From an uncultured Myxococcales bacterium (GTDB lineage: Bacteria > Myxococcota > UBA4151), in NCBI GenBank assembly GCA_964013405.1, contig CAXGWI010000129.1:1-10413 (forward strand): a DNA stretch of 10,413 nt, written 5' to 3'. A program made the position numbers and the translations under genes. Below are positions 12-10,345 of this stretch, in pieces. The notes beneath the pieces are model-generated. The model was not told the DNA's origin and did not search any database. It saw only the letters and a list, made by a program, of their open reading frames with translations. Each line of letters begins with the position of its first letter. Position 1 is the first letter of the stretch.

Positions 12-1115
12 GTGATCATCATCATCGCCATCCTCTGCTTCGTTCTGGTCCTCAATTTCTCGAAAGGTCCGGAGTTTGTCTTCGCCGCCTTCTTGCCTTC
101 CATTCTGGTGGTCTACCTGATTTGGCACCTTGATCGGCACAAGGAACCTGCTCTTTATGTACTGTCCGCTTTCTTTCTCGGCGCCATTGTCGCTCCGGTG
201 GCAGTTATCTATTTGTATCCATTTCATGACCAGATTCCAGATACCCCCTTCGCAAAGGCTCTGTTTGGCGCCGCCATTCCTGAGGAGGTCTACCGGGTCC
301 TGATCCTCTTCGTGTTTTGCCGCGCCGTGAAAGAGGTCAATGAACCCTTTGATGTGTTGGTCTATGGCGCAGCCATTTGGGGTGGCTTCGCAGCCTCTGA
401 AAACTTGCTGTACGTTTGGCACGAATCGACCACGACGGGGCGGACAAGTGAACTTCTAGGGCTGCGCACCGCACTGTGTACCACCGGGCACGTGGGCATG
501 GGCATGGTGAGTGCCTCCTTCGTTGCGGCCGCTGTCTTTAGCCGAAAATACGGATACAGCCTCATCGGACTGGTGCTGGGCATCGGAGTTCACACGATCT
601 ACAATTGGGGCTGGCATCGAGTCGAGCTCGTGTATCCCGAGGGTAGCTTGGACCATGTCGGGTTCTTTGAAGCCGTTCGGCTGGAATCCCAAATTCCGGG
701 CTTCTGGATTTCGATGACCACTCAATTGATCACTCTGGTCATTGCACTGGTCCTGATTCGTTGGTTTTCGAAGCAGCAACAGAGCTCAGAGACCGAGGGT
801 GACCAAGCCATGGACACAGCCGAGACCTTTTTGGCTGAGAACCCGTTGGCGACACAGAAAGGGAGTCGATGGGTCCTGGCCTTCGGGCTCGGCGGACTGC
901 TCCTTTGCATTTTGGTTCAGATCGGGATGGGTACCACCGTCTACCTTGTTCTCGAAGCCAGTCACGGAGGTCGCTCGTATGTTTGGAGTGCGCTCGCGAC
1001 GACTGGGCTGACGGTGTGGTTCTGGCACCTGCTCATCCGACAAGTGGATCAATCCATTCATCAGCCCCAAATTCCCCCATCCAAAGAGGACATCACGGCA
1101 ACGCCACACCCTTGA
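12..1115 (+). CDS. prsW: PrsW-family glutamic-type intramembrane protease (start uncertain; frame is open to the left edge)
   Basis: Multi-TM hydrophobic protein with the PrsW motif series: DRHKEP, A-IPEEVYR (EExxK-like, nt 282-296), EPFDVLVYGAAIWGGFAASENLLY (FxxxEN), LR...GH and HTIYN (HxxxN). The symbol denotes the family, not proven orthology. Confidence 0.88.
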   Translation: MIIIIAILCFVLVLNFSKGPEFVFAAFLPSILVVYLIWHLDRHKEPALYVLSAFFLGAIVAPVAVIYLYPFHDQIPDTPFAKALFGAAIPEEVYRVLILFVFCRAVKEVNEPFDVLVYGAAIWGGFAASENLLYVWHESTTTGRTSELLGLRTALCTTGHVGMGMVSASFVAAAVFSRKYGYSLIGLVLGIGVHTIYNWGWHRVELVYPEGSLDHVGFFEAVRLESQIPGFWISMTTQLITLVIALVLIRWFSKQQQSSETEGDQAMDTAETFLAENPLATQKGSRWVLAFGLGGLLLCILVQIGMGTTVYLVLEASHGGRSYVWSALATTGLTVWFWHLLIRQVDQSIHQPQIPPSKEDITATPHP

Positions 1116-1160: not shown

Positions 1161-1358
1161 ATGAGTGCAACGAGTGATAAACAGCCCGATCTCGAAGCGC
1201 TCTTCATTGCCTTTTGCGATGAAGAGACCGAAGTCTGGCGCCAAGCGGCTCTGAGCCTCGGTGCCCTCGCCGTCGAGCATGAGGAGGCTCGCAATCTCCT
1301 TTTAAGCCCCCTTAAGCAGGAAGATAATCATCACCGGCGCCGGCATGGCTCTCGATGA
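1161..1358 (+). CDS. Short HEAT/PBS-lyase-like repeat peptide, probably a truncated gene remnant
   Basis: LEALFIAFCDEETEVWRQAALSLGAL matches the HEAT consensus L..L.D....VR..AA.ALG.L. A second repeat starts (LLLSPLKQEDN) and then degenerates. Purine-rich GGGGCGAG lies upstream of the ATG. Overlaps the next gene by 14 nt. Confidence 0.55.
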   Translation: MSATSDKQPDLEALFIAFCDEETEVWRQAALSLGALAVEHEEARNLLLSPLKQEDNHHRRRHGSR

Positions 1359-4300
1359 CGAATCGCAGCTGCGCCAACAACTGGCGCAACTGGAATTGCA
1401 AACCCGCACCCAAGCCCTGTTGGCGTTGGCCGCTTGGCAGCGCACCGGGATCGTAGCGGAGCGTCTCTTTCACAGCGTCGCCGCCCTGCAGCGACCCGCC
1501 TGGGGCAGCTGGAATGGGCTCCTCAGCAGCCTCGCCAAAGCACGCCGTAACGTCCTGCAAACCGGCACCCCGGAACAACGGGAGGCGTTACGGGCCGAAA
1601 CCCTGCTCGGCAGCCTCCTGGATGCCCACGAAACCGTGCCGGAGGGCTTAGAAAAGGCAAACCTAGAAGCCTTAGCGAACCTCCTCGGCAGCCAAGTGCC
1701 CCGCCGCCTCCGCCGGGATCAACTCCTGGGCCTCGCCATCAGCCTGCGCAATCGGGTCGCCCACGACCAACCCACCGACCCCGTCTGGTGGCAGCAGGGC
1801 GCTGCAGCACTCCGCCCCCTCAGCGAGGCCCTGGACGCCCCGCTGCCCCCGGAAGCCCCAGCACCCTGGTTCCTTCAGGCCGATGGCAAACGCTGGAGCT
1901 TTAACGGGCTGCGTAAAGACTTGGTGGGCATCTTTGTGGATGCCGGTGGCAACAGCCGCTTTGAAGACGAACAAGGCGAAGCGGTCGTCGCAGCCTTTCA
2001 AAGCCTTTTAGGCCAAGAGGCGGTCCAGGCTGAAGACTTAAAGCGGCTCTTAGGCAAGTTGGCGCCCGAGGATTTAAAGGGCGTGCTGATGGATGACTAT
2101 CTTGTGGGTCCCCTCGCCGGTGAAGGTGGCTTCGCCAGCGTCCACGTGGGTCGCCAGCTCAGCACCGGCCGGAAGGTGGCGATCAAGTTCCTCAAGCCGG
2201 GCTTGCCCGAGGAAGCCAAACAGCGATTCCTGCAGGAAGCCACCTTCCTCAGCCGCTTTCACCACCCCCACATCGTGGAGGTGCTGGGTCGGGGCGAAAG
2301 CATTTGGCGTGCGCCCCGCAGTTACAGCCTCGACGATGAGGACTGGTACGGCGCCTTTAAAGCGGCCGGCAAACAGCGCACCTGGATGGCCTTGGAATGG
2401 GTCGACGGTGGCACCCTGGAGCGTTGCCCGGAAGGCGCCAGCGAGGATCAGATCCTGCAATGGTTCGCCCAGGCGGCCGATGCCCTGCAGGCTGTCCACG
2501 AACAGGGCGTGATTCACCGGGATGTGAAGCCGGCGAATCTGATGGTCAGTGAACAGGGGCAGTTGAAGTTGATGGACTTTGGCATCGCCCGTTCCCAAGA
2601 GCTTCAGCGCACCTTAATGACCGTGGAAGGTGTGGTGGGCACACCGGCCTACATGGCGCCGGAGCAGCTGCGAGCGACCGCAGCGGAAGCGGAGGTGGGT
2701 CCCCAGGCTGATGTCTATGCCCTGTGTGCCACCTTTTATGAGTTACTGACGAGCACCCGGCTCTTTGATCACGACACCGCGCCGGTGGAGACCATCACCC
2801 TCAAAAAGATCCAAGGGGTGCGACCGCCCCGGGCCCGTCGGCTTCAAGACGAATTGTCCTGGGAAATCGAAACTGTTTTGATGGGCGGTCTCGAGCCAGA
2901 AGCTAGCGACCGTTATCGTTCAGCCGAAGCCCTGCGACGGGACGTGGAGCGGATTCGAGCCAGTCACCCAATTCAGTATCGAAAAACGAGTATCCCACGT
3001 CGGGCAATACTCGCCTATCGACGCAACAGAGCGCTGATGAATGTGGTCGTATTGTCCCTCGCTATTTTCTCGGCGGGGGTTGCTCAATATGTGGTCGACC
3101 TACGACTCGAAGAGCAAAATACGAGAAAGGCTAATGAGCGGGCGAATATCGCACTCCGAAAGAGCCGAGAAAACTTGGCCGTTAGTTCGGCTGCCCGTAT
3201 CGCAAAAGACGATCGACTTGCTGCAACGCTCTTACTCAAAGAAGTACCAGCGAAGAGTACGATCCCGAATTGGAGTAATTTAACATTTCAAGTCCTCCAG
3301 GGACCGGCACTCCCAGCGCGCCTCCCTCATGGCACTCTTGTCCGGTCTGCTCGCTGGTCGAACGACTATAAGGAAATTTGGACATTCGGAACCGATGGCT
3401 CTGAAAAGCGCTGGAGCCACCCCAGGGGTAGCCTCCAGGGCTCCGTCATTTCTCACAACCAAGCCATCGGAGCTGCCCATTACGATCAAAGCGGACGCTA
3501 TCTAGCAATCAGTTCAAAGGATGGCTCGGTGAGCATTCGAGACGAGGAGACGAAAACGGCAATAATTCGCCTCAACAGTTCGGCATCCGAAAGACCACTG
3601 ATGGCATGGCATCCAACGAAACCTATACTAGCCATTAGGGGTAAAGGGAGCCGGTTGGTTCTCCTATCGCCGAGACCTAGAAAGAAGCATTCAGTCGACA
3701 CCGAAGAAGGCAGGATAATCTGGCTTCAGTGGAGTCAAAACGGCAAAACGCTTACCGTATTGACCGACAATGATGTCCTTCAAAACTGGACACACACTTT
3801 GGAACCAATCGCCAGTATCCCTAACAAAGGGGATGGAAGGCGAGTTGGTCTATTCGAGAATCCAAATCAAGATATCCTCATCGCTAAACTCAGCGATGGC
3901 AGGCTCTGTCTACTGGCGGCTGCAACATCGCTTGAAACCACCTGCATACGACCGGGATACCAGATAAGGACGGCTGCGCTAAACTCGACAGCAAGGCTTT
4001 TGGCAACGGTTCCGATGACCGGATTTTCTGTCGACATTTGGGATGCTCAAACGGGCCAACACAACAAGCGACTCAAAGGTCATACCGGTTATATCTACAA
4101 GGCGGTATGGAACCCACGTGGCGATGCACTTGCAACCGTCTCAGAGGACCAGACCGCTCGCGTCTGGAGCTTAAACAGTCCCGCCCCCTCTATTCTACTT
4201 CATGGGCACACTGGGATTGTGCAGGACGCAGCTTGGCACAAGGATGGCATCCACCTTTTAACAGCATCGCTAGATGGAACCGCCCGTGTGTGGGATACCC

Positions 4301-5379
4301 AAACATCCCGTAAGCAGTCGGTCCACCAAATCCATGGTGGAAGTACAATCAGAAGCGTTGGTCGCGCTCCTGGAGGAGGTCGTATCCTGACCTCTGGTGC
4401 TGATGGGTTCATCAAAATCTGGCGAGAAGCGGACTTTGACCAAGAACTCAGGTCGACGAGAGCTCACAAAAGATGGATCCGCACCGCCCGCTGGAGCCCG
4501 AACGGAAAGCGTATTCTCAGCGCATCGGACGACCAAACGGTCCGTCTTTGGAATAGCGAAACCCTGGAGCTGATTGGAGAGTTCGTCGGTCATCAAGGAA
4601 CCGTGACGGCAGCGGAATTTCACCCAAATGAAGAAATCATAGCTTCAGTTTCGGTTGATCGGTTCTTGCACGTCTGGGACGTGAAGCCGCCCCACAAAGT
4701 GGTGATGTCCTTTGAACACAGTAGTCGGCTCGATGATGTTGCCTGGCATCCAAAGGGGAACGTACTTGCGCTCGCAGGAGACGATGGAGACATTGTATTG
4801 GTACCGCGGGACAGCGGAAAGCCCGTTACGGTACTAGAGGGCCACCAAGACGAGGTGAATAGTGTCGTCTGGAATCAGGACGGCTCACTACTTCTCTCCT
4901 CCTCCAGAGATCGGTCGGTCATGATTTGGCAACCATTTAGCAAAAAGTTGCCCACTCGTTTCTCAGGTCACTCCAGTTCCGTCCGAAGGGCTATATTTTC
5001 GCCGGACGAGAAATACATTGCCAGCGTTTCTTCAGACCATTCTCTGCGCATCTGGATGGCCACTAGCACGCAAGCTATTCTTTCAATGACCGGACACGAG
5101 CATACGGTCTACGACCTCGACTGGCGCTCATCTCAGGAACCACTTCTAACCGTTTCTCGAGATGGAACCTTACGTCGTTGGAATATGCCTCAGGAGGGCC
5201 CGACCTCAGAAGCCTTAGAAAAATGGCTACATCGGCTCACTCATTCCTGTCTAACCGCGTACGAACGCCAACAGTACCTGGCGGAGTTAGCCGACGAAGC
5301 CCAAGCCAACGAGCGCCGTTGCCGCCAAGACAAAGGCACCCTCCCCCTGTCGCCGGCAGCCGATCCGACAAGCCCTTAG
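1345..5379 (+). CDS. Multidomain protein: N-terminal HEPN-like helical domain, Hanks-type Ser/Thr kinase, TM helix, ~15 WD40 repeats
   Basis: Kinase (~nt 2098-2960) has GEGGFASV, VAIK, RFLQE, HRDVKPAN, DFGIA, GTPAYMAPEQ and DVYAL. Hydrophobic helix at aa 563-584 (nt 3031-3096) is preceded by RRNR. WD40 repeats such as GHTGIVQDAAWHKDGIHLLTASLDGTARVWD span ~3316-5190. LRNRVAHD is at aa 134-141. Confidence 0.93.
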   Translation: MALDDESQLRQQLAQLELQTRTQALLALAAWQRTGIVAERLFHSVAALQRPAWGSWNGLLSSLAKARRNVLQTGTPEQREALRAETLLGSLLDAHETVPEGLEKANLEALANLLGSQVPRRLRRDQLLGLAISLRNRVAHDQPTDPVWWQQGAAALRPLSEALDAPLPPEAPAPWFLQADGKRWSFNGLRKDLVGIFVDAGGNSRFEDEQGEAVVAAFQSLLGQEAVQAEDLKRLLGKLAPEDLKGVLMDDYLVGPLAGEGGFASVHVGRQLSTGRKVAIKFLKPGLPEEAKQRFLQEATFLSRFHHPHIVEVLGRGESIWRAPRSYSLDDEDWYGAFKAAGKQRTWMALEWVDGGTLERCPEGASEDQILQWFAQAADALQAVHEQGVIHRDVKPANLMVSEQGQLKLMDFGIARSQELQRTLMTVEGVVGTPAYMAPEQLRATAAEAEVGPQADVYALCATFYELLTSTRLFDHDTAPVETITLKKIQGVRPPRARRLQDELSWEIETVLMGGLEPEASDRYRSAEALRRDVERIRASHPIQYRKTSIPRRAILAYRRNRALMNVVVLSLAIFSAGVAQYVVDLRLEEQNTRKANERANIALRKSRENLAVSSAARIAKDDRLAATLLLKEVPAKSTIPNWSNLTFQVLQGPALPARLPHGTLVRSARWSNDYKEIWTFGTDGSEKRWSHPRGSLQGSVISHNQAIGAAHYDQSGRYLAISSKDGSVSIRDEETKTAIIRLNSSASERPLMAWHPTKPILAIRGKGSRLVLLSPRPRKKHSVDTEEGRIIWLQWSQNGKTLTVLTDNDVLQNWTHTLEPIASIPNKGDGRRVGLFENPNQDILIAKLSDGRLCLLAAATSLETTCIRPGYQIRTAALNSTARLLATVPMTGFSVDIWDAQTGQHNKRLKGHTGYIYKAVWNPRGDALATVSEDQTARVWSLNSPAPSILLHGHTGIVQDAAWHKDGIHLLTASLDGTARVWDTQTSRKQSVHQIHGGSTIRSVGRAPGGGRILTSGADGFIKIWREADFDQELRSTRAHKRWIRTARWSPNGKRILSASDDQTVRLWNSETLELIGEFVGHQGTVTAAEFHPNEEIIASVSVDRFLHVWDVKPPHKVVMSFEHSSRLDDVAWHPKGNVLALAGDDGDIVLVPRDSGKPVTVLEGHQDEVNSVVWNQDGSLLLSSSRDRSVMIWQPFSKKLPTRFSGHSSSVRRAIFSPDEKYIASVSSDHSLRIWMATSTQAILSMTGHEHTVYDLDWRSSQEPLLTVSRDGTLRRWNMPQEGPTSEALEKWLHRLTHSCLTAYERQQYLAELADEAQANERRCRQDKGTLPLSPAADPTSP
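3316..5190 (+). repeat. WD40 repeat array (protein level), ~15 repeats, probably two beta-propellers
   Basis: About 15 units of ~40-44 aa counted by eye. Units 7-15 are largely canonical (GH...D...W[DN]); units 3-6 are divergent. No near-identical DNA-level repeats. Confidence 0.85.
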
Positions 5380-5444: not shown

Positions 5445-6197
5445 TCAGGGCTTTGGCGCCGGTAAGACCTCCCGGGGGTCAAAGTAGCGGGTGGTTTTAC
5501 TCGAAGGCTCGTAATAGGCCGTCTCCAGACGGAGCATGGTGCCGATGGTCGCCGCTTGCCCCGTGTCCCCCACCCACGCAAAAACCTCACCGGCTTGGAG
5601 CCGGTCACCCTCTTTCACCCGATGGCCCATCAGGTGCTTGTAGTTGCTCATAAAGCCCAAGTCATGGCGCAGCGTAATCACGTTGCCCGAACCCCAATGG
5701 TCGCAGCCGACAAAGACCACCTCCCCAGCCGCGATGGCCCGGATCGGCTTGCCCTTGCCTGCCCCCAGGTCGAGCCCTGAGTTGGTGATCTCATGACCCT
5801 CCACGAAGAACGAGGGCTGCTTGCCATAGGCCCGCAACAGCTCGAAGCCAGTCAAAGGCCAGACCGTCTTGCCCTTCGCCGCCAGCCGCGTCTCAGCGCT
5901 CGCTTGGACCAGATAAACCGGTGCTTCCATCTCTTCGGGCTTCAGGTTGTCCTCGTACTTCATGTATTTGGGTTTCAAGTTGCGCCCGCAAAAGACTTGC
6001 CGGGGTTCATCGCCTCCACTCAGGCTCTCGGTGAGCTCCCCTTCGATGCCGGCGGCCAATTGCTCATCACCGCTTTTCACCGGGTCGGGGTTCAAGGGCC
6101 CCTCGTGATCCATCGCCGCTGGCGTTCCACAGGCAACGCAAGCAACGACGAAGGCCAACAGCTGCCAATGCTTCAGTTCGGGAGAATGGAAGTTCAT
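5445..6197 (-). CDS. M23/LytM-domain lipoprotein with degenerate active site (NlpD/EnvC-like), 250 aa
   Basis: Start reassigned to ATG 6197, with AAGGAG at 6205-6210 on the minus strand and a signal peptide with lipobox (VVAC/CVAC). M23 fold motifs: WPL, GLDL, PIRAIAAGEVVFVG, GNVITLRH, YKHL, VKEGDRLQAGE, VGDTG, FDP. HxxxD reads NSGLD and HxH reads MLR. Confidence 0.85.
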   Translation of the reverse strand: MNFHSPELKHWQLLAFVVACVACGTPAAMDHEGPLNPDPVKSGDEQLAAGIEGELTESLSGGDEPRQVFCGRNLKPKYMKYEDNLKPEEMEAPVYLVQASAETRLAAKGKTVWPLTGFELLRAYGKQPSFFVEGHEITNSGLDLGAGKGKPIRAIAAGEVVFVGCDHWGSGNVITLRHDLGFMSNYKHLMGHRVKEGDRLQAGEVFAWVGDTGQAATIGTMLRLETAYYEPSSKTTRYFDPREVLPAPKP

Positions 6198-6201
6198 CGG
6201 G

Positions 6202-7140
6202 CTACTCCTTGGTTGTCGAGACCGGTGCGATCGGGCTCGCCGCCAGCCAGGAGGTCTGGGGGAAATGCCCACCCCAGCGGTAAAAGGGCTGGGGTAGCGA
6301 TTGAAAGCGATGGGCTGCCCCATCGAAGTCGTGCCCGTAATCCAACGAGACACCGCCGTCGGGTACCATGCCGTTGTACACACCGACATGGCGGGCCACG
6401 CAGGCGATCTCCGGCAAGGTAACCAGACCCCCCGGCCCCGACACCACCAGGATGAGGTCACCGTTCTTTGCTTGGCCCAAGAGGCTGCGGAAGTTTCGCA
6501 GCGACGCGTTCGGCTTGACCTTCGTGTTGCGGCGACCGTTGCCCACGAGTCGCCCTTGGCGCAGGGGCATCTCCCGGCCCTGAAAGCCCGCTTCGAGCCC
6601 CTTCAACGGCCCGGGCCGCCGCTGAACCCGTGGGCCCCCCTTGCCGACCACGAAGACCCCATTGGCTCGATCAGGCTTCTGGATCACTCGGCCCTGACTC
6701 AACAAGAGGCCCAAGGGGAGGCCTTGTTTATCGTGAAAGTTGGCGTTGATGAAGAAGGCGCCGTCGGCGGGTTTTTCGGTCAGCACGCGCCAGCGAAAGT
6801 CCCCTCTTCGGAATCGGTACACCTCAAGAGCGCCCTCCCGGAAACCCCCCGCTCCGGGCACCTGGATACGCTGATGATCCAGACCCGGTCGTAATGGGTT
6901 CACCGGGCCCCGACTCATGAATTCTGGCTTCTGTCCCCAAGCCTCAGGCGAGTCAGGGCAACGATTATCTGCCCCCATCCCTTCGCCCTGGTCCGGGGTG
7001 GACAGCGAAAATGCGCTCCAATCCAGCAGCACGGGCTGCTGCCACAGGACCACGCTGCCGCTCAGCAGAAGACCCACGGGAATCACCAACAGGAGGCTTG
7101 CGTTCGCTCGCCAGCGTGAAGCTTTGGGCTCGGTGTTCAT
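6202..7140 (-). CDS. Phosphodiester glycosidase (NAGPA/DUF2233-like) family protein, N-terminally anchored
   Basis: Motifs FFINANFH..PLGLLLSQG, NGVFVV, RSLLGQAKNGDLILVV, VTLPEIA and GVYNGMVPDGGVS (cf. family LDGGGS). N-terminal hydrophobic segment. The start overlaps the upstream stop as ATGA at 7137-7140. Confidence 0.78.
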   Translation of the reverse strand: MNTEPKASRWRANASLLLVIPVGLLLSGSVVLWQQPVLLDWSAFSLSTPDQGEGMGADNRCPDSPEAWGQKPEFMSRGPVNPLRPGLDHQRIQVPGAGGFREGALEVYRFRRGDFRWRVLTEKPADGAFFINANFHDKQGLPLGLLLSQGRVIQKPDRANGVFVVGKGGPRVQRRPGPLKGLEAGFQGREMPLRQGRLVGNGRRNTKVKPNASLRNFRSLLGQAKNGDLILVVSGPGGLVTLPEIACVARHVGVYNGMVPDGGVSLDYGHDFDGAAHRFQSLPQPFYRWGGHFPQTSWLAASPIAPVSTTKE

Positions 7141-7772
7141 TCATCTCCCTCATAGGCCACATTGTTGCGATTCGCGACGGAGCGGTACCGGCAAAGCCCC
7201 AGGGCTTTGGCCGGGTCTTTATGCAGGACGTTGCCGCTCCTTGGATCCTTCTCCCGCACCCCCAAGTGCAGGTGGGCCGAGAAGGCCCAAGGCACCCCAC
7301 CCGGCCGACCCGAGCCCGTATTGCCCACGGTGCCGATGATCTGCCCGAGGGCGACGTGGTCGCCACGGGCCACGTGAACATCCCGCAGATGGCTGTAGCT
7401 AACGTGCTGGGAGAAGCGCCCATAACCGGTCCACACGGTGACCGTATGATCGGGCCCGCCCGCGGCGATGACTCGACCGGGCTGCACCGCACGAACCGGC
7501 ACACCCGCTTTGGCAGCGAGGTCAATACCGGGGTGAAACTCCCGGGGGTAACCGGCCACTTTCCGAGGGCCAAAATGAGAAGAGACCGTGGCGCTGTCGA
7601 GGGGTAAGGGCTGGGCGCATTGGAGGCGAGACCGGAGTAAGTCTCGCAAATGATCGCCTTCGCCTACCGGGCTCGCCTGCTGACTCGGCCCAGCGACGCT
7701 GGGAAGCCCCACGGCCCGGGGGCTACTGCAGCCCAGGAAGGCAAAGAGGGCAAGGTATCGAGTCAACGGCAC
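7137..7772 (-). CDS. M23 family metallopeptidase, lipoprotein, zinc ligands intact
   Basis: GTG start with GGAG upstream (7782-7785). Lipobox FLGC at Cys15. Motifs VSSHFGPR, FHPGIDL (HxxxD), YSHL, VGNTG, AHLHLG (HxH) and KDP. Confidence 0.92.
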   Translation of the reverse strand: MPLTRYLALFAFLGCSSPRAVGLPSVAGPSQQASPVGEGDHLRDLLRSRLQCAQPLPLDSATVSSHFGPRKVAGYPREFHPGIDLAAKAGVPVRAVQPGRVIAAGGPDHTVTVWTGYGRFSQHVSYSHLRDVHVARGDHVALGQIIGTVGNTGSGRPGGVPWAFSAHLHLGVREKDPRSGNVLHKDPAKALGLCRYRSVANRNNVAYEGDE

Positions 7773-7921
7773 GTGTTGGGTCTCCAGAGGCTAGCCGGGC
7801 GGTTCGGGCTGGGGTCCGCACCGGCGAAGATGACAGGCGCCCTGGGCTCATTCAACAGGATCGAGAGCATATTATTCGAGATTGGGATCCAAAGAGCCAC
7901 CGGAGCCGCGGTTCGGTGGCG

Positions 7922-7946
7922 GGAATCAAGAGGCTCAAGTTCCGTT
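7922..7946 (+). promoter_or_regulatory. Putative ECF sigma promoter GGAAT-N16-CGTT
   Basis: GGAAT at 7922-7926, a 16-nt spacer, and CGTT at 7943-7946, about 40 nt upstream of ATG 7987. A second copy lies at 9713-9738 on the minus strand. Confidence 0.55.
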
Positions 7947-7986
7947 GTTTTTGCACGAAGGGCTGCAGGACACCGGAGGCATCGAC

Positions 7987-8625
7987 ATGAGACGAGCTGG
8001 GATCATGCTCTTGCTCATCACCGGTGCTGGCGCGGCGTTGGCGTCGTGGCCGAAGGCCCCCGAGCCAGTCTATCAGCCTCGCTCTGGCGATTTGATCTTT
8101 CAACGGGAAGCGAACGTCCAGAGTGCCATGATCAAGGTGGCAACCCTCTCGCGCTACAATCACGTGGGCATCGTCTTTGTGGAGCGGGGTAAACCCTATG
8201 TTTACGAAGCCATTGGCCGAGTCGTCAAAGTCCCTCTTAAGGACTTCATCAAGCGGGGCAGTGGCGCCCATTTTATCGTCCGGCGCCTGAAGGAACCCTT
8301 GCCGAGCCAAGCCCAGGTCAAACTGCGTCGAGAAACCCGCCGCCATTTAGGTAAACGTTACGACCCAATGCTCTCCTGGGATGATTCCCGGATGTATTGT
8401 TCGGAATTGGTGTGGAAGGTCTACAAGCGAGCTCTTGGCCTAGAGATCAGTCCGAAAGTGAAGATTCGAGACTTTGCCCATGTGGCCAATGGTCCCGTGA
8501 TGTGGGCCCTGAAGAAAGCCGGCCCCACGGGCTTTGATCTGAGCAAGATCAAGTGGGATGAAAGCCTGGTGGCCCCAGGCACCTTGCTCAAGTCCAGCGC
8601 CCTCCACACGGTCTATGGGAACTAG
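7987..8625 (+). CDS. YiiX/YebB-like permuted papain-like (NlpC/P60) amidase/peptidase with signal peptide, 212 aa
   Basis: Start reassigned to ATG 7987, with GGAGG at 7975-7979. Motifs GDLIFQ, SRYNHVGIV (catalytic His), YVYEA, GKRYD and RMYCSELVWKVY, so the catalytic Cys follows the His (permuted order). Confidence 0.92.
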   Translation: MRRAGIMLLLITGAGAALASWPKAPEPVYQPRSGDLIFQREANVQSAMIKVATLSRYNHVGIVFVERGKPYVYEAIGRVVKVPLKDFIKRGSGAHFIVRRLKEPLPSQAQVKLRRETRRHLGKRYDPMLSWDDSRMYCSELVWKVYKRALGLEISPKVKIRDFAHVANGPVMWALKKAGPTGFDLSKIKWDESLVAPGTLLKSSALHTVYGN

Positions 8626-8666
8626 GCGGCTGGTCCCTAGGGCTGCGCTGGGGCTCGTCGGTGGGC

Positions 8667-8695
8667 TTGCCCCATCGAGATCGAGTCTTTAGGCT
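8667..8695 (+). promoter_or_regulatory. Putative housekeeping sigma70-type promoter TTGCCC-N17-TAGGCT
   Basis: -35-like box at 8667-8672, exact 17-nt spacer, TANNNT box at 8690-8695, then GGAGG at 8707-8711 and ATG 8720. Confidence 0.5.
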
Positions 8696-8719
8696 GCCCC
8701 ACGACCGGAGGAATCCGCC

Positions 8720-9013
8720 ATGGCATCTTGGCAAAGAACAGTCGCCCTCTTCTGCTTTATCGGCCTCGGTTTGGGGGCTTGTACCAAGTCGCCTGTCGAC
8801 AAGCTCGAGAGTTGGTCCAACGAAGTCTGTGCCTGCGAGAACGCAGAGTGCGTCAAAACCGTCAGCGACAAATACGGCGGCTTAGCCGAGAATCCCCCCA
8901 AGGACCTCAGCGACGCGGACCAAAAGCGCGTGCTTGCGGCGGTCCAGAAAGGCCTCGGCTGCTCCATGAAGGCAGCCGCAAAGGACTTAAAGGATCGCTT
9001 AGGAGGCAAGTAG
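8720..9013 (+). CDS. Small Cys-rich helical lipoprotein of unknown function, 97 aa
   Basis: GGAGG RBS at 8707-8711. Lipobox LGAC at Cys21. The mature part has C37-x-C39-x4-C44 and C81. Confidence 0.82.
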   Translation: MASWQRTVALFCFIGLGLGACTKSPVDKLESWSNEVCACENAECVKTVSDKYGGLAENPPKDLSDADQKRVLAAVQKGLGCSMKAAAKDLKDRLGGK

Positions 9014-9031
9014 TAACCCCCTGTTACTACT
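9009..9031. terminator. 9-bp perfect inverted repeat between convergent genes, possible terminator or stability hairpin
   Basis: AGTAGTAAC (9009-9017), loop CCCCT, GTTACTACT (9023-9031). It overlaps the lipoprotein stop codon and has no U-tract. Confidence 0.4.
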
Positions 9032-9069
9032 GTCAACTAGCCAAGCGGAGTCAGGGCGGAGGAGTCAAC

Positions 9070-9702
9070 TCAGGGTCGAGCCGACCGAGTCCTTTCGCCA
9101 TGTCCCTTGGTCTTGTGATGACCTCGCTTCGAAGTGACCGCTCGACGGGGGCGGGGCTTATTCACCGAATCCACAATGCGCTGGGCATGGGCACACACAA
9201 AGGGCTCAGGGTCTAGGAAGTCAGCGTCATCATGCCCATGGTTCCGATAGATCTCTAAATGCAGATGGGGCCCCTTGGAGCGCCCCGTACTGCCGACCTC
9301 ACCAATCACCTGCCCCGCTTGCACCCGAGCGCCCCGCTTCACCAGCAGCTTGGAGAGGTGAGCGAACTTGAACTTCAAGCCACCGGGACTGCGCATCATG
9401 ACCGCCAGTCCCCCGCCAGTTTTCGAGCGCCGTGCGAAGTAAACATAGCCATCCTGTATCGCCCGGACCGGGGTCCCCTCATCGGCGGCGATGTCGATGC
9501 CATAGTGAAAAGTCAGGCGACTCCGATCCCAGGGGTAGTCACGCAGCCCATAGTGGGAGCTGATGTGGCCGTCGTTGATGGCGATGGGTCGATCGCACTG
9601 GGCCGAGGCGAGGATCTGCTGGGGCTGCATCTCCACCACCGGCGCCACCGGGCGAGGGCTAAGGAGCAGGGGCAGAAGGGCCAGTGGGACAAGTGGGTTC
9701 AC
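9070..9702 (-). CDS. M23 family metallopeptidase, exported, zinc ligands intact, basic C-terminal tail
   Basis: Motifs ISSHYGLR, FHYGIDI (HxxxD), FAHL, VKRGARVQAGQVIGEVGSTGRSKGPHLHLEI (HxH) and LDP. Hydrophobic N-terminus. GTG start with no obvious Shine-Dalgarno. Confidence 0.93.
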   Translation of the reverse strand: MNPLVPLALLPLLLSPRPVAPVVEMQPQQILASAQCDRPIAINDGHISSHYGLRDYPWDRSRLTFHYGIDIAADEGTPVRAIQDGYVYFARRSKTGGGLAVMMRSPGGLKFKFAHLSKLLVKRGARVQAGQVIGEVGSTGRSKGPHLHLEIYRNHGHDDADFLDPEPFVCAHAQRIVDSVNKPRPRRAVTSKRGHHKTKGHGERTRSARP

Positions 9703-9712
9703 GGGCTACTGT

Positions 9713-9738
9713 AACGGAAAGGCTGTAGCGCTTATTCC
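9713..9738 (-). promoter_or_regulatory. Putative ECF sigma promoter GGAAT-N17-CGTT
   Basis: The minus strand reads GGAAT (9738-9734), a 17-nt spacer, then CGTT (9716-9713), ending 10 nt before GTG 9702. Confidence 0.55.
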
Positions 9739-9793
9739 GCCCTTAAGCTGATCTTGCGAGATCCTTTGAAAGGCCCCGAGGCCTGAACCCAGA

Positions 9794-10345
9794 CTATCGA
9801 GCAGGCCTTGAACGGACAGGGCCACAGGGCTCGTTGATGAAAAAATGAACCCGGTCGGGGCGCGAGAAATAGCCCCCCCACTTCAGACCGTGCCGCTTCG
9901 CCACCGCCACCACCCCCGTCTCGAGCCAGCGCTTGGTGCTGCTCTTCTTCACCCGCCAGAGGCTGCGATTCATCAAGGAGCGCCAGCTCAACTGAAACAG
10001 GTTGATGTCGATGGCGAGTCCATGACTGTGTCGGCTGCAGCCTTTGGTGGCATCGGGATTCGTCTTCGCCTCTTCTTTTTGCTGCGCTGGACTGCGATAA
10101 CCGGAGGTCACCAGAACTCGCCAGGCGGTCTCAGCCTCGACCCCATCGATGAAGGCTTCAAACCGAGCCTGATTGGCCGGCAAAGCCTCCAGCCGACTGG
10201 CGTTGTTACTCGCCACCCCCTGCAAAAAGATGAGCAAGCCACCGCCCAAGAGCAAAAGGGGCAACATCACCAAGGCAGCGAGCCCCCAAAGCACGAAGCG
10301 CCGCCTGGATCGGGGCGCTTCGGGCGCTGGGGTCGTGACGGTCAT
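9794..10345 (-). CDS. M15 family Zn peptidase (L-Ala-D-Glu endopeptidase/D,D-peptidase-like), membrane anchored
   Basis: Motifs VTSGYRSPAQQ, SRHSHGLAIDI (SxHxxGxAxD) and GLKWGGYF..DRVHF. N-terminal RRRF is followed by a long hydrophobic helix. Confidence 0.9.
   Translation of the reverse strand: MTVTTPAPEAPRSRRRFVLWGLAALVMLPLLLLGGGLLIFLQGVASNNASRLEALPANQARFEAFIDGVEAETAWRVLVTSGYRSPAQQKEEAKTNPDATKGCSRHSHGLAIDINLFQLSWRSLMNRSLWRVKKSSTKRWLETGVVAVAKRHGLKWGGYFSRPDRVHFFINEPCGPVRSRPAR

Follow-up and report, generated by a model that had tools for sequence, protein, structure and literature searches.

A predicted receptor kinase with a HEPN-like head and interchangeable tails in an uncultured Myxococcales bacterium

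Introduction

Could a bacterial membrane receptor carry its own RNase and switch it on through a kinase? Eukaryotes have HEPN RNases that are coupled to kinases (IRE1 and RNase L), and a bacterial receptor built of the same parts would show that the design arose twice. The question is raised by one gene in a 10,413-nucleotide stretch of DNA from an uncultured Myxococcales bacterium, hereafter the window, which is the whole of contig CAXGWI010000129.1 (C129) of a 3.9-Mb assembly. The three MYXO-CTERM matches in this genome are in keeping with a Myxococcota host. From N- to C-terminus, the 1344-residue product consists of a helical head, an intact Hanks kinase, a single hydrophobic helix and about 15 WD40 blades (Table 1). 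A sequence-only reading of the window had taken the head for a HEPN-like domain and proposed that a ligand bound outside the cell dimerises the kinase and thereby activates an RNase, with a stress, dormancy or defence output. The conservation of the predicted catalytic arginine and histidine, a HEPN-like model of the head and a conserved hydrophobic helix partly support the framework of that proposal; its ligand, dimer activation, RNase activity and role in defence or dormancy keep the status of proposals. The reading favoured here, with a probability of roughly 0.6, is that the protein is a receptor kinase whose clustering would switch on an RNase. If true, it would give some of the orphan membrane kinases of planctomycetes and myxobacteria a direct, measurable output.

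Conservation of the head and its motifs

The head defines a real family that lacks annotation. Its first 250 residues have no match in Pfam, NCBIfam or PADLOC (0 families in PADLOC 2.0, generic kinase matches only), and their matches at 50% identity number 196 clusters, the best 150 of them retrieved. Among 33 head sequences submitted to Pfam, no family was matched by more than one member; a sequence search of the PDB with the head gave armadillo-repeat noise only, and its matches in the ESM Atlas were all under 0.8.

The peptides LRNRVAHD and LQRPAWGSWNGLL begin at residues 134 and 48, respectively, where the sequence-only reading had placed them, and the former contains the putative catalytic R135 and H140. 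R-x4-H is present six times in the protein, so that little can be concluded from the motif by itself and a family test is needed. In an alignment of 155 relatives, 141 rows cover the motif and 136 of them have R135-N136-H140 unaltered (14 rows gapped there are left out of the count); this exceeds chance and upholds the expected conservation of both predicted catalytic residues. A second motif, E17-x3-R21, was not part of the earlier reading; where a residue is present, E17 is kept in 145 and R21 in 146 of 147 rows. These five residues are the best conserved of 93 polar columns (96-99%, versus 47% for the median column) in a domain whose median pairwise identity is 36%. The hallmarks of the HEPN superfamily, according to an excerpt of PMC3710099, are Rx4-6H with a polar residue after the arginine and an Ex3[KR] motif; a conserved motif of the first kind and, upstream of it, one of the second are both found here. 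E17 sits in the first helix of the model, and the excerpted text assigns the acidic residue to helix 2.

Structural evidence for a HEPN fold

Residues 1-176 were modelled with a predicted local distance difference test score (pLDDT) of 95.6. Helices 124-141 and 146-162 of the model show the arrangement expected of HEPN domains, with the catalytic motif at the end of one helix, the last helix following and an insert preceding. When this model was compared with 48,161 chains, the first-ranked structure was 1wwp (Z 6.5, root-mean-square deviation 3.1, 99 residues aligned), and 12 of the top 50 entries were HEPN-type, with Z of 4.5-6.5 and alignments over roughly residues 1-172. Three of the 12 (2jpu, 5yep and 1ufb) are entries that we take to be HEPN-type. 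Seven others (1wwp, 2hsb, 4rgp, 7ae2, 3c8g, 1ylm and 8jbc) are HEPN by entry title or PMC3710099, and the last two are Roquin, a HEPN protein according to PMC4614863.

The strength of these matches has to be judged with care. Z values of 4.5-6.5 fall within the tool's range for chance helical bundles and unrelated bundles tie with the top match, so the structural weight lies in the enrichment of HEPN entries. A 250-residue model returned HEPN-type entries in only two of 50 rows, with generic bundles dominating, and Foldseek searches of the PDB with both models gave no match at E <= 0.001 (Csm6 was at rank 13, E 1.4). The family profile, searched against 401 genomes, matched a HepT/DUF86 RNase gene in one of them (E 4.7e-6), and the open reading frame (ORF) ahead of that gene is presumably, from its sequence, an MNT gene. 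Comparison with profiles of 22 HepT and 8 Swt1 sequences gave P values of 0.004 and 0.001 (0.26 and 0.38 for reversed controls). Both matches are confined to the motif helix and its successor, at probabilities of 9% and 22%, and in global hhalign alignments helix 1 did not fall on either HepT or Swt1. A homodimer prediction for residues 1-176 scored 0.38, with the mark at 0.42 and controls at 0.00-0.02, and is evidence neither way.

The HEPN assignment of the sequence-only reading is favoured by the first rank of 1wwp and the enrichment, and it is tempered by modest Z values and the Foldseek result. Conceivably the head is some other helical bundle, unrelated to HEPN domains, whose motif merely resembles theirs, as the low Z values with their unrelated ties and the weak profile probabilities would allow. 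That both HEPN motifs lie on the side of the insert where they are expected, that HEPN entries are enriched and that HepT was matched make this most improbable, and a HEPN fold is regarded as very probable.

Gene layout, kinase and membrane helix

The domain order given by the sequence-only reading (head, kinase, transmembrane helix, WD40) agrees with the ORF list and with Pfam, motif and hydropathy scans. Pfam matches the kinase over residues 258-531 (E 1e-43), with VAIK at 278, HRDVKPAN at 391, DFG at 411 and APE at 438; the catalytic Lys, Glu, HRD-N and DFG elements of Hanks Ser/Thr kinases are present. The kinase of the family is set apart by an N-lobe insert with two near-invariant tryptophans (W321 in 130 of 135 rows, W334 in 133 of 136), a region where 22 of the 23 other kinase alignments from the same genome that cover it have 10-25 gaps.

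Table 1. Features of the gene and its surroundings (positions in the window)
Feature	Position	Strand	Basis or remark
HEAT-like ORF, 64 residues, overlapping the gene start	1164..1358	+	HEAT_2, E 0.007
HEPN-like/kinase/transmembrane/WD40 gene	1345..5379	+	1344 residues, without internal stop; ORF list and Pfam
HEPN-like helical domain, residues 5-162, with helical insert ahead of the catalytic-motif helix	1357..1830	+	model and structure search
E17-x3-R21, matching HEPN Ex3[KR]	1393..1407	+	alignment; motif definition from PMC3710099
Family signature, residues 48-60 (P51, G54, W56)	1486..1524	+	also present in the head of a remote ATPase-TPR relative
R135-N136-x3-H140, predicted RNase active-site motif	1747..1764	+	alignment
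Small conserved beta subdomain and linker to kinase, residues 172-250	1858..2094	+	model
RD-type Hanks Ser/Thr kinase	2095..2964	+	every catalytic motif present
Family-specific kinase N-lobe insert of about 23 residues, within residues 317-347	2293..2385	+	alignment
Variable segment (kinase end, transmembrane helix, stalk, propellers) with low GC content at third codon positions (GC3)	2836..5261	+	GC3 change point; loose ends 2822/2838 and 5262
Single predicted transmembrane helix, residues 563-584, after a basic stretch	3031..3096	+	hydropathy only
Polar stalk from helix to propellers	3097..3294	+	likely helical (read from sequence); no Pfam match
About 15 WD40 blades, probably two propellers, predicted extracytoplasmic	3307..5193	+	Pfam; topology by analogy with PMC11032199

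Head and kinase have been kept together. Of 126 rows, 118 retain the motif together with the kinase residues, three have lost both, two the motif only and three a kinase residue only (one of these being a gap), so that three of the five rows lacking the motif had lost kinase residues too. Head and kinase identities are correlated (Spearman 0.84 over 6903 non-independent pairs), which fits a single ancient fusion. The beta subdomain between the two has conserved P174, W175, G188, G223 and G246 and is without a match in Pfam or, for residues 165-250, in the ESM Atlas; comparison gave no support for equating it with the beta-rich region of remote ATPase-TPR relatives.

The most hydrophobic window of the protein, residues 563-581, has a Kyte-Doolittle value of 1.87 (the second best is 1.22), with a net charge of +5 before and 0 after it. 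Among the 156 rows, 123 extend at least 60 residues beyond the kinase end; the other 33 are mostly fragments, and a few of them (P0082, P0099 and P0142) run into unrelated sequence. A hydrophobic window of at least 1.6 follows the kinase in 118 of the 123, with a mean net charge of +5 before and +0.5 after. By hydropathy, the membrane span that had been proposed at residues 563-584 is thus a conserved feature, and by hydropathy and charge bias only, the family has the form of the single-pass receptor kinases in PMC11032199. The predicted topology is N-in/C-out. The WD40 region comprises 10 Pfam stretches, and a tryptophan spacing of about 42 residues across residues 660-1283 gives about 15 blade slots by eye, about five of them degenerate, in line with the approximately 15 repeats counted earlier.

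A constant core with interchangeable tails

Head, kinase and membrane helix are constant in the family, and the tails vary (WD40, TPR, FGE, OmpA and PQQ). At least three WD40 repeats were found in 46 of the 123 relatives with a crude local profile. Scanning 38 of the other 77 gave 12 TPR, eight WD40-type propeller, four FGE, three PQQ-type (one of which also carries PEGA), one OmpA and 10 unnamed tails. The picture of a WD40 sensor therefore holds for this protein and is too narrow for the family, in which WD40 is just one among several tail types that can replace one another. In 54 of 118 cases the protein with the closest core yielded no match for the tail, which indicates that tails have been exchanged. 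One Planctomycetota genome has 10 paralogs, among them two tandem pairs (four genes), and all 10 keep Ex3R, RNxxxH, HRD and the membrane helix with five propeller, two TPR, two FGE and one unnamed tail. One tandem pair has propeller tails and the other FGE tails (L098 and L099, on contigs C38 and C82 of genome G401). In the open frame of one paralog (L101:5373-11021, minus strand), about 590 additional residues without annotation precede the head.

The variety of tails bears on their location. A cytoplasmic tail that detects phage proteins in the manner of NLR-like immunity is conceivable, with the hydrophobic helix serving only as an anchor, and a remote relative does have the head on an ATPase-TPR protein. 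The single helix with its N-in charge bias and the occurrence of OmpA, PQQ, PEGA and FGE tails argue against this, and an excerpt of PMC11032199 reports that the same tail types on planctomycete kinases are periplasmic by DeepTMHMM prediction. A cytoplasmic tail is accordingly considered highly improbable.

Mosaic structure and strain variation

The gene is compositionally mosaic, a feature beyond the sequence-only reading. GC3 drops from 0.74 to 0.53 at codon 497 (position 2836), with a log-likelihood gain of 29.9 against 8.6 for the best of 200 permutations, and 0.53 is below the first percentile of the genome's long ORFs (0.58). In run X2, contigs overlapping by 30 bases follow the gene from position 1540 at about 96% identity and depart at 2822-2838; in the 30 letters there, translated by eye, seven of 10 residues agree and DNA identity is about half. 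At 5262, runs X3 and X5 come in from sequence that is in frame and has five of nine residues in common with the gene. Positions from about 2850 to 5150 are without cover in runs X1, X2, X3 and X5, holes which in themselves prove nothing; X2 and X5 have no cover there at 80% likeness either, and X11 has no matching contigs. No listed contig bridges positions 1347, 2836 or 5262 or spans an alternative middle. Two runs with one sample code, not counted as independent, match both sides of 2836 with 0 differences. Misassembly is therefore conceivable, but inside the gene it is less likely because the frame and the family homology run through 2836 and because of this two-run match. From these departures we infer that the sensor half has been exchanged among close strains. 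Among the 39 differences listed of 69 between strains, 31 codons are synonymous and seven non-synonymous, and none lies in the motifs. Run X2 also departs from the window at 5349, and the last codons (5350-5379) therefore differ between strains as well.

At the gene start, X2 and X3 have different DNA ahead of the gene. In X3 and X5 the HEAT-like ORF continues in frame beyond position 1347 into different DNA, so that in the window it looks truncated at about that position. It has apparently been cut short by rearrangement or misassembly and would not be a conserved part of the system.

Proposed mechanism and alternatives

As a single-pass receptor, the protein would be clustered by a signal at its outer tail, and clustering of the kinases would turn on the predicted RNase inside the cell. 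Kinase activation would be PknB-like and back-to-back, as described for PknB and the unfolded protein response kinases in an excerpt of 10.64898/2026.10.08.757607. The same dimerisation event would pair the heads tethered to the kinase N-lobes, and two HEPN heads would form a composite active site; HEPN RNases are typically dimeric (PMC13092281, excerpt). Cleavage of tRNA, rRNA or mRNA would follow, and the likely output is that attack on the envelope, or contact, makes the cell stop growing or die. That the head is an active RNase is considered probable, and the receptor-coupled switch is given the same weight as the favoured reading. A role in conflict or defence falls somewhat short of even odds. 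Less probable is that these proteins form a polymorphic set of receptor kinase-RNases in which a constant cytoplasmic core receives recombination-swapped outer sensors for phage, predator or non-kin contact at the envelope and triggers RNA destruction. If true, bacteria would have a counterpart of IRE1/RNase L that arose by convergence and whose receptors form an immune-like repertoire (one genome with 10 paralogs, different alleles among close strains).

Besides the structural and profile scores discussed above, several observations weigh against a receptor-coupled RNase. Hydropathy and charge bias are the whole basis of the topology. No neighbour gene is conserved across 35 related loci and the window, no defence-island context was seen around the family loci, and an MNT antitoxin is absent from the window (by Pfam) and from 56 neighbour ORFs scanned. 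Roquin, among the best structure matches, is described as an RNA-binding HEPN protein (PMC4614863), and ordinary signalling would also account for the 10 paralogs of a single genome. Alternatively, therefore, the HEPN-fold head could bind RNA or nucleotides, or only dimerise, in an ordinary receptor kinase with a phosphorylation output. The Roquin precedent, the paralog expansion with tails typical of planctomycete kinases and the lack of an antitoxin partner all favour this alternative. It is nevertheless judged unlikely, since each of the five residues of the predicted active site is 96-99% conserved in so divergent a domain and an intact Rx4-6H is taken to imply RNase activity in an excerpt of PMC3710099.

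The missing antitoxin can also be viewed in another way. The RNase could be real and the kinase could restrain it by phosphorylation as a built-in antitoxin, with release by ATP loss, dephosphorylation or proteolysis. Fused MNT-HEPN proteins do self-inhibit in cis (PMC13000451), and the head has stayed attached to a single kinase clade, one that has an insert of its own. An RD kinase with a variable outer tail, however, fits ligand activation, and the kinase-defective members mostly lose the motif too or show only a Glu-to-Asp change. Restraint by the kinase is consequently held to be less likely still than a non-catalytic head, and activation of the RNase by clustering is preferred to both.

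Comparison with known systems

The protein resembles IRE1 and RNase L in having sensor, kinase and HEPN-type RNase in one chain, and IRE1 is likewise single-pass. The order is reversed here, with the RNase before the kinase and the sensor last, and the kinase is bacterial and PknB-like, as would result from independent assembly. In IRE1 and RNase L the KEN domain, a HEPN-derived RNase (PMC3710099, excerpt), is C-terminal to the kinase, whereas the HEPN-like domain of this protein is N-terminal; KEN is also absent from the structure matches of the head. As judged from its sequence, the protein is an analogue and not a homologue of IRE1, as had been anticipated.

The planctomycete and myxobacterial kinase-transmembrane-WD40/TPR/FGE kinases (PMC11032199) and PkwA (PDB 5yzv) share the kinase, the single transmembrane helix and the set of repeat tails, to which the family described here adds a 245-residue head and the kinase insert. 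The main text of PMC11032199 contains no occurrence of HEPN or nuclease. Bacterial membrane-associated HEPN groups likewise combine a cytoplasmic HEPN domain with a transmembrane helix and are proposed to cut RNA upon a stimulus, but the three groups in the excerpt of section 15 of PMC3710099 lack a kinase or repeat ectodomain. HepT/DUF86 toxins (PF01934) and Swt1-like HEPN domains (PF18731) share RNxxxH followed by a Trp-containing helix. Unlike these, the family has a large insert, a kinase fusion, no Pfam match and, in the window and the neighbour ORFs, no adjacent or fused MNT antitoxin of the HepT/MntA kind. Neither the head nor the full system matched the defence systems catalogued in PADLOC 2.0. 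Literature searches on HEPN-kinase fusions gave no description of a fusion of HEPN head, kinase, transmembrane helix and tail, though supplementary architecture lists could contain one, and it is not described in excerpts of PMC3710099, PMC8195603, PMC10542128, PMC7159879, PMC13092281 or 10.64898/2026.10.19.760177.

Distribution and genomic context

No family member was found in 400 other genomes of the host's phylum, with eight candidates scored per genome, and none of the viral contigs or plasmids searched held a relative. In the phylum of the planctomycete, 11 of 401 genomes matched, seven strongly (including the centre genome) and four weakly; three of the four weak matches are proteins of 1336-1378 residues with the same two N-terminal motifs and R-x5-H. 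One of these three aligns over residues 6-139 at 72% probability and carries AAA_16 and TPR, which means that the head also sits on an NLR-like protein. Unannotated heads with the same motifs and R-x5-H occur at L103:496-4503 (plus strand), L102 and L104, and the L103 protein, an AAA_16-TPR fusion, is a candidate NLR-like protein with an RNase effector. The candidate L002 was rejected as spurious, being opposite a longer ORF.

In the neighbour scan, an FHA gene lay upstream at one locus, and umuDC-like and DUF4145 genes were present at another. At the latter (L013:7150-16866), the sole mobile- or defence-looking locus, the family gene lies between the umuDC-like genes and the DUF4145 gene. An unannotated protein of about 520 residues is encoded near the family gene at L013:17191-18759 and L019:1129-2673 (43% identical), with partial matches at L017 and L020. 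The window shows little synteny with five genomes of the same family. Upstream of the gene, on the same strand, is a PrsW-family intramembrane metalloprotease (12-1115, plus strand), which was not seen beside relatives. Downstream, positions 5445-10345 encode envelope enzymes, namely three M23 peptidases, an NAGPA phosphodiester glycosidase, a C92 amidase and an M15 peptidase, and within this cluster lies a 97-residue Cys-rich ORF (8720-9013) with no Pfam match.

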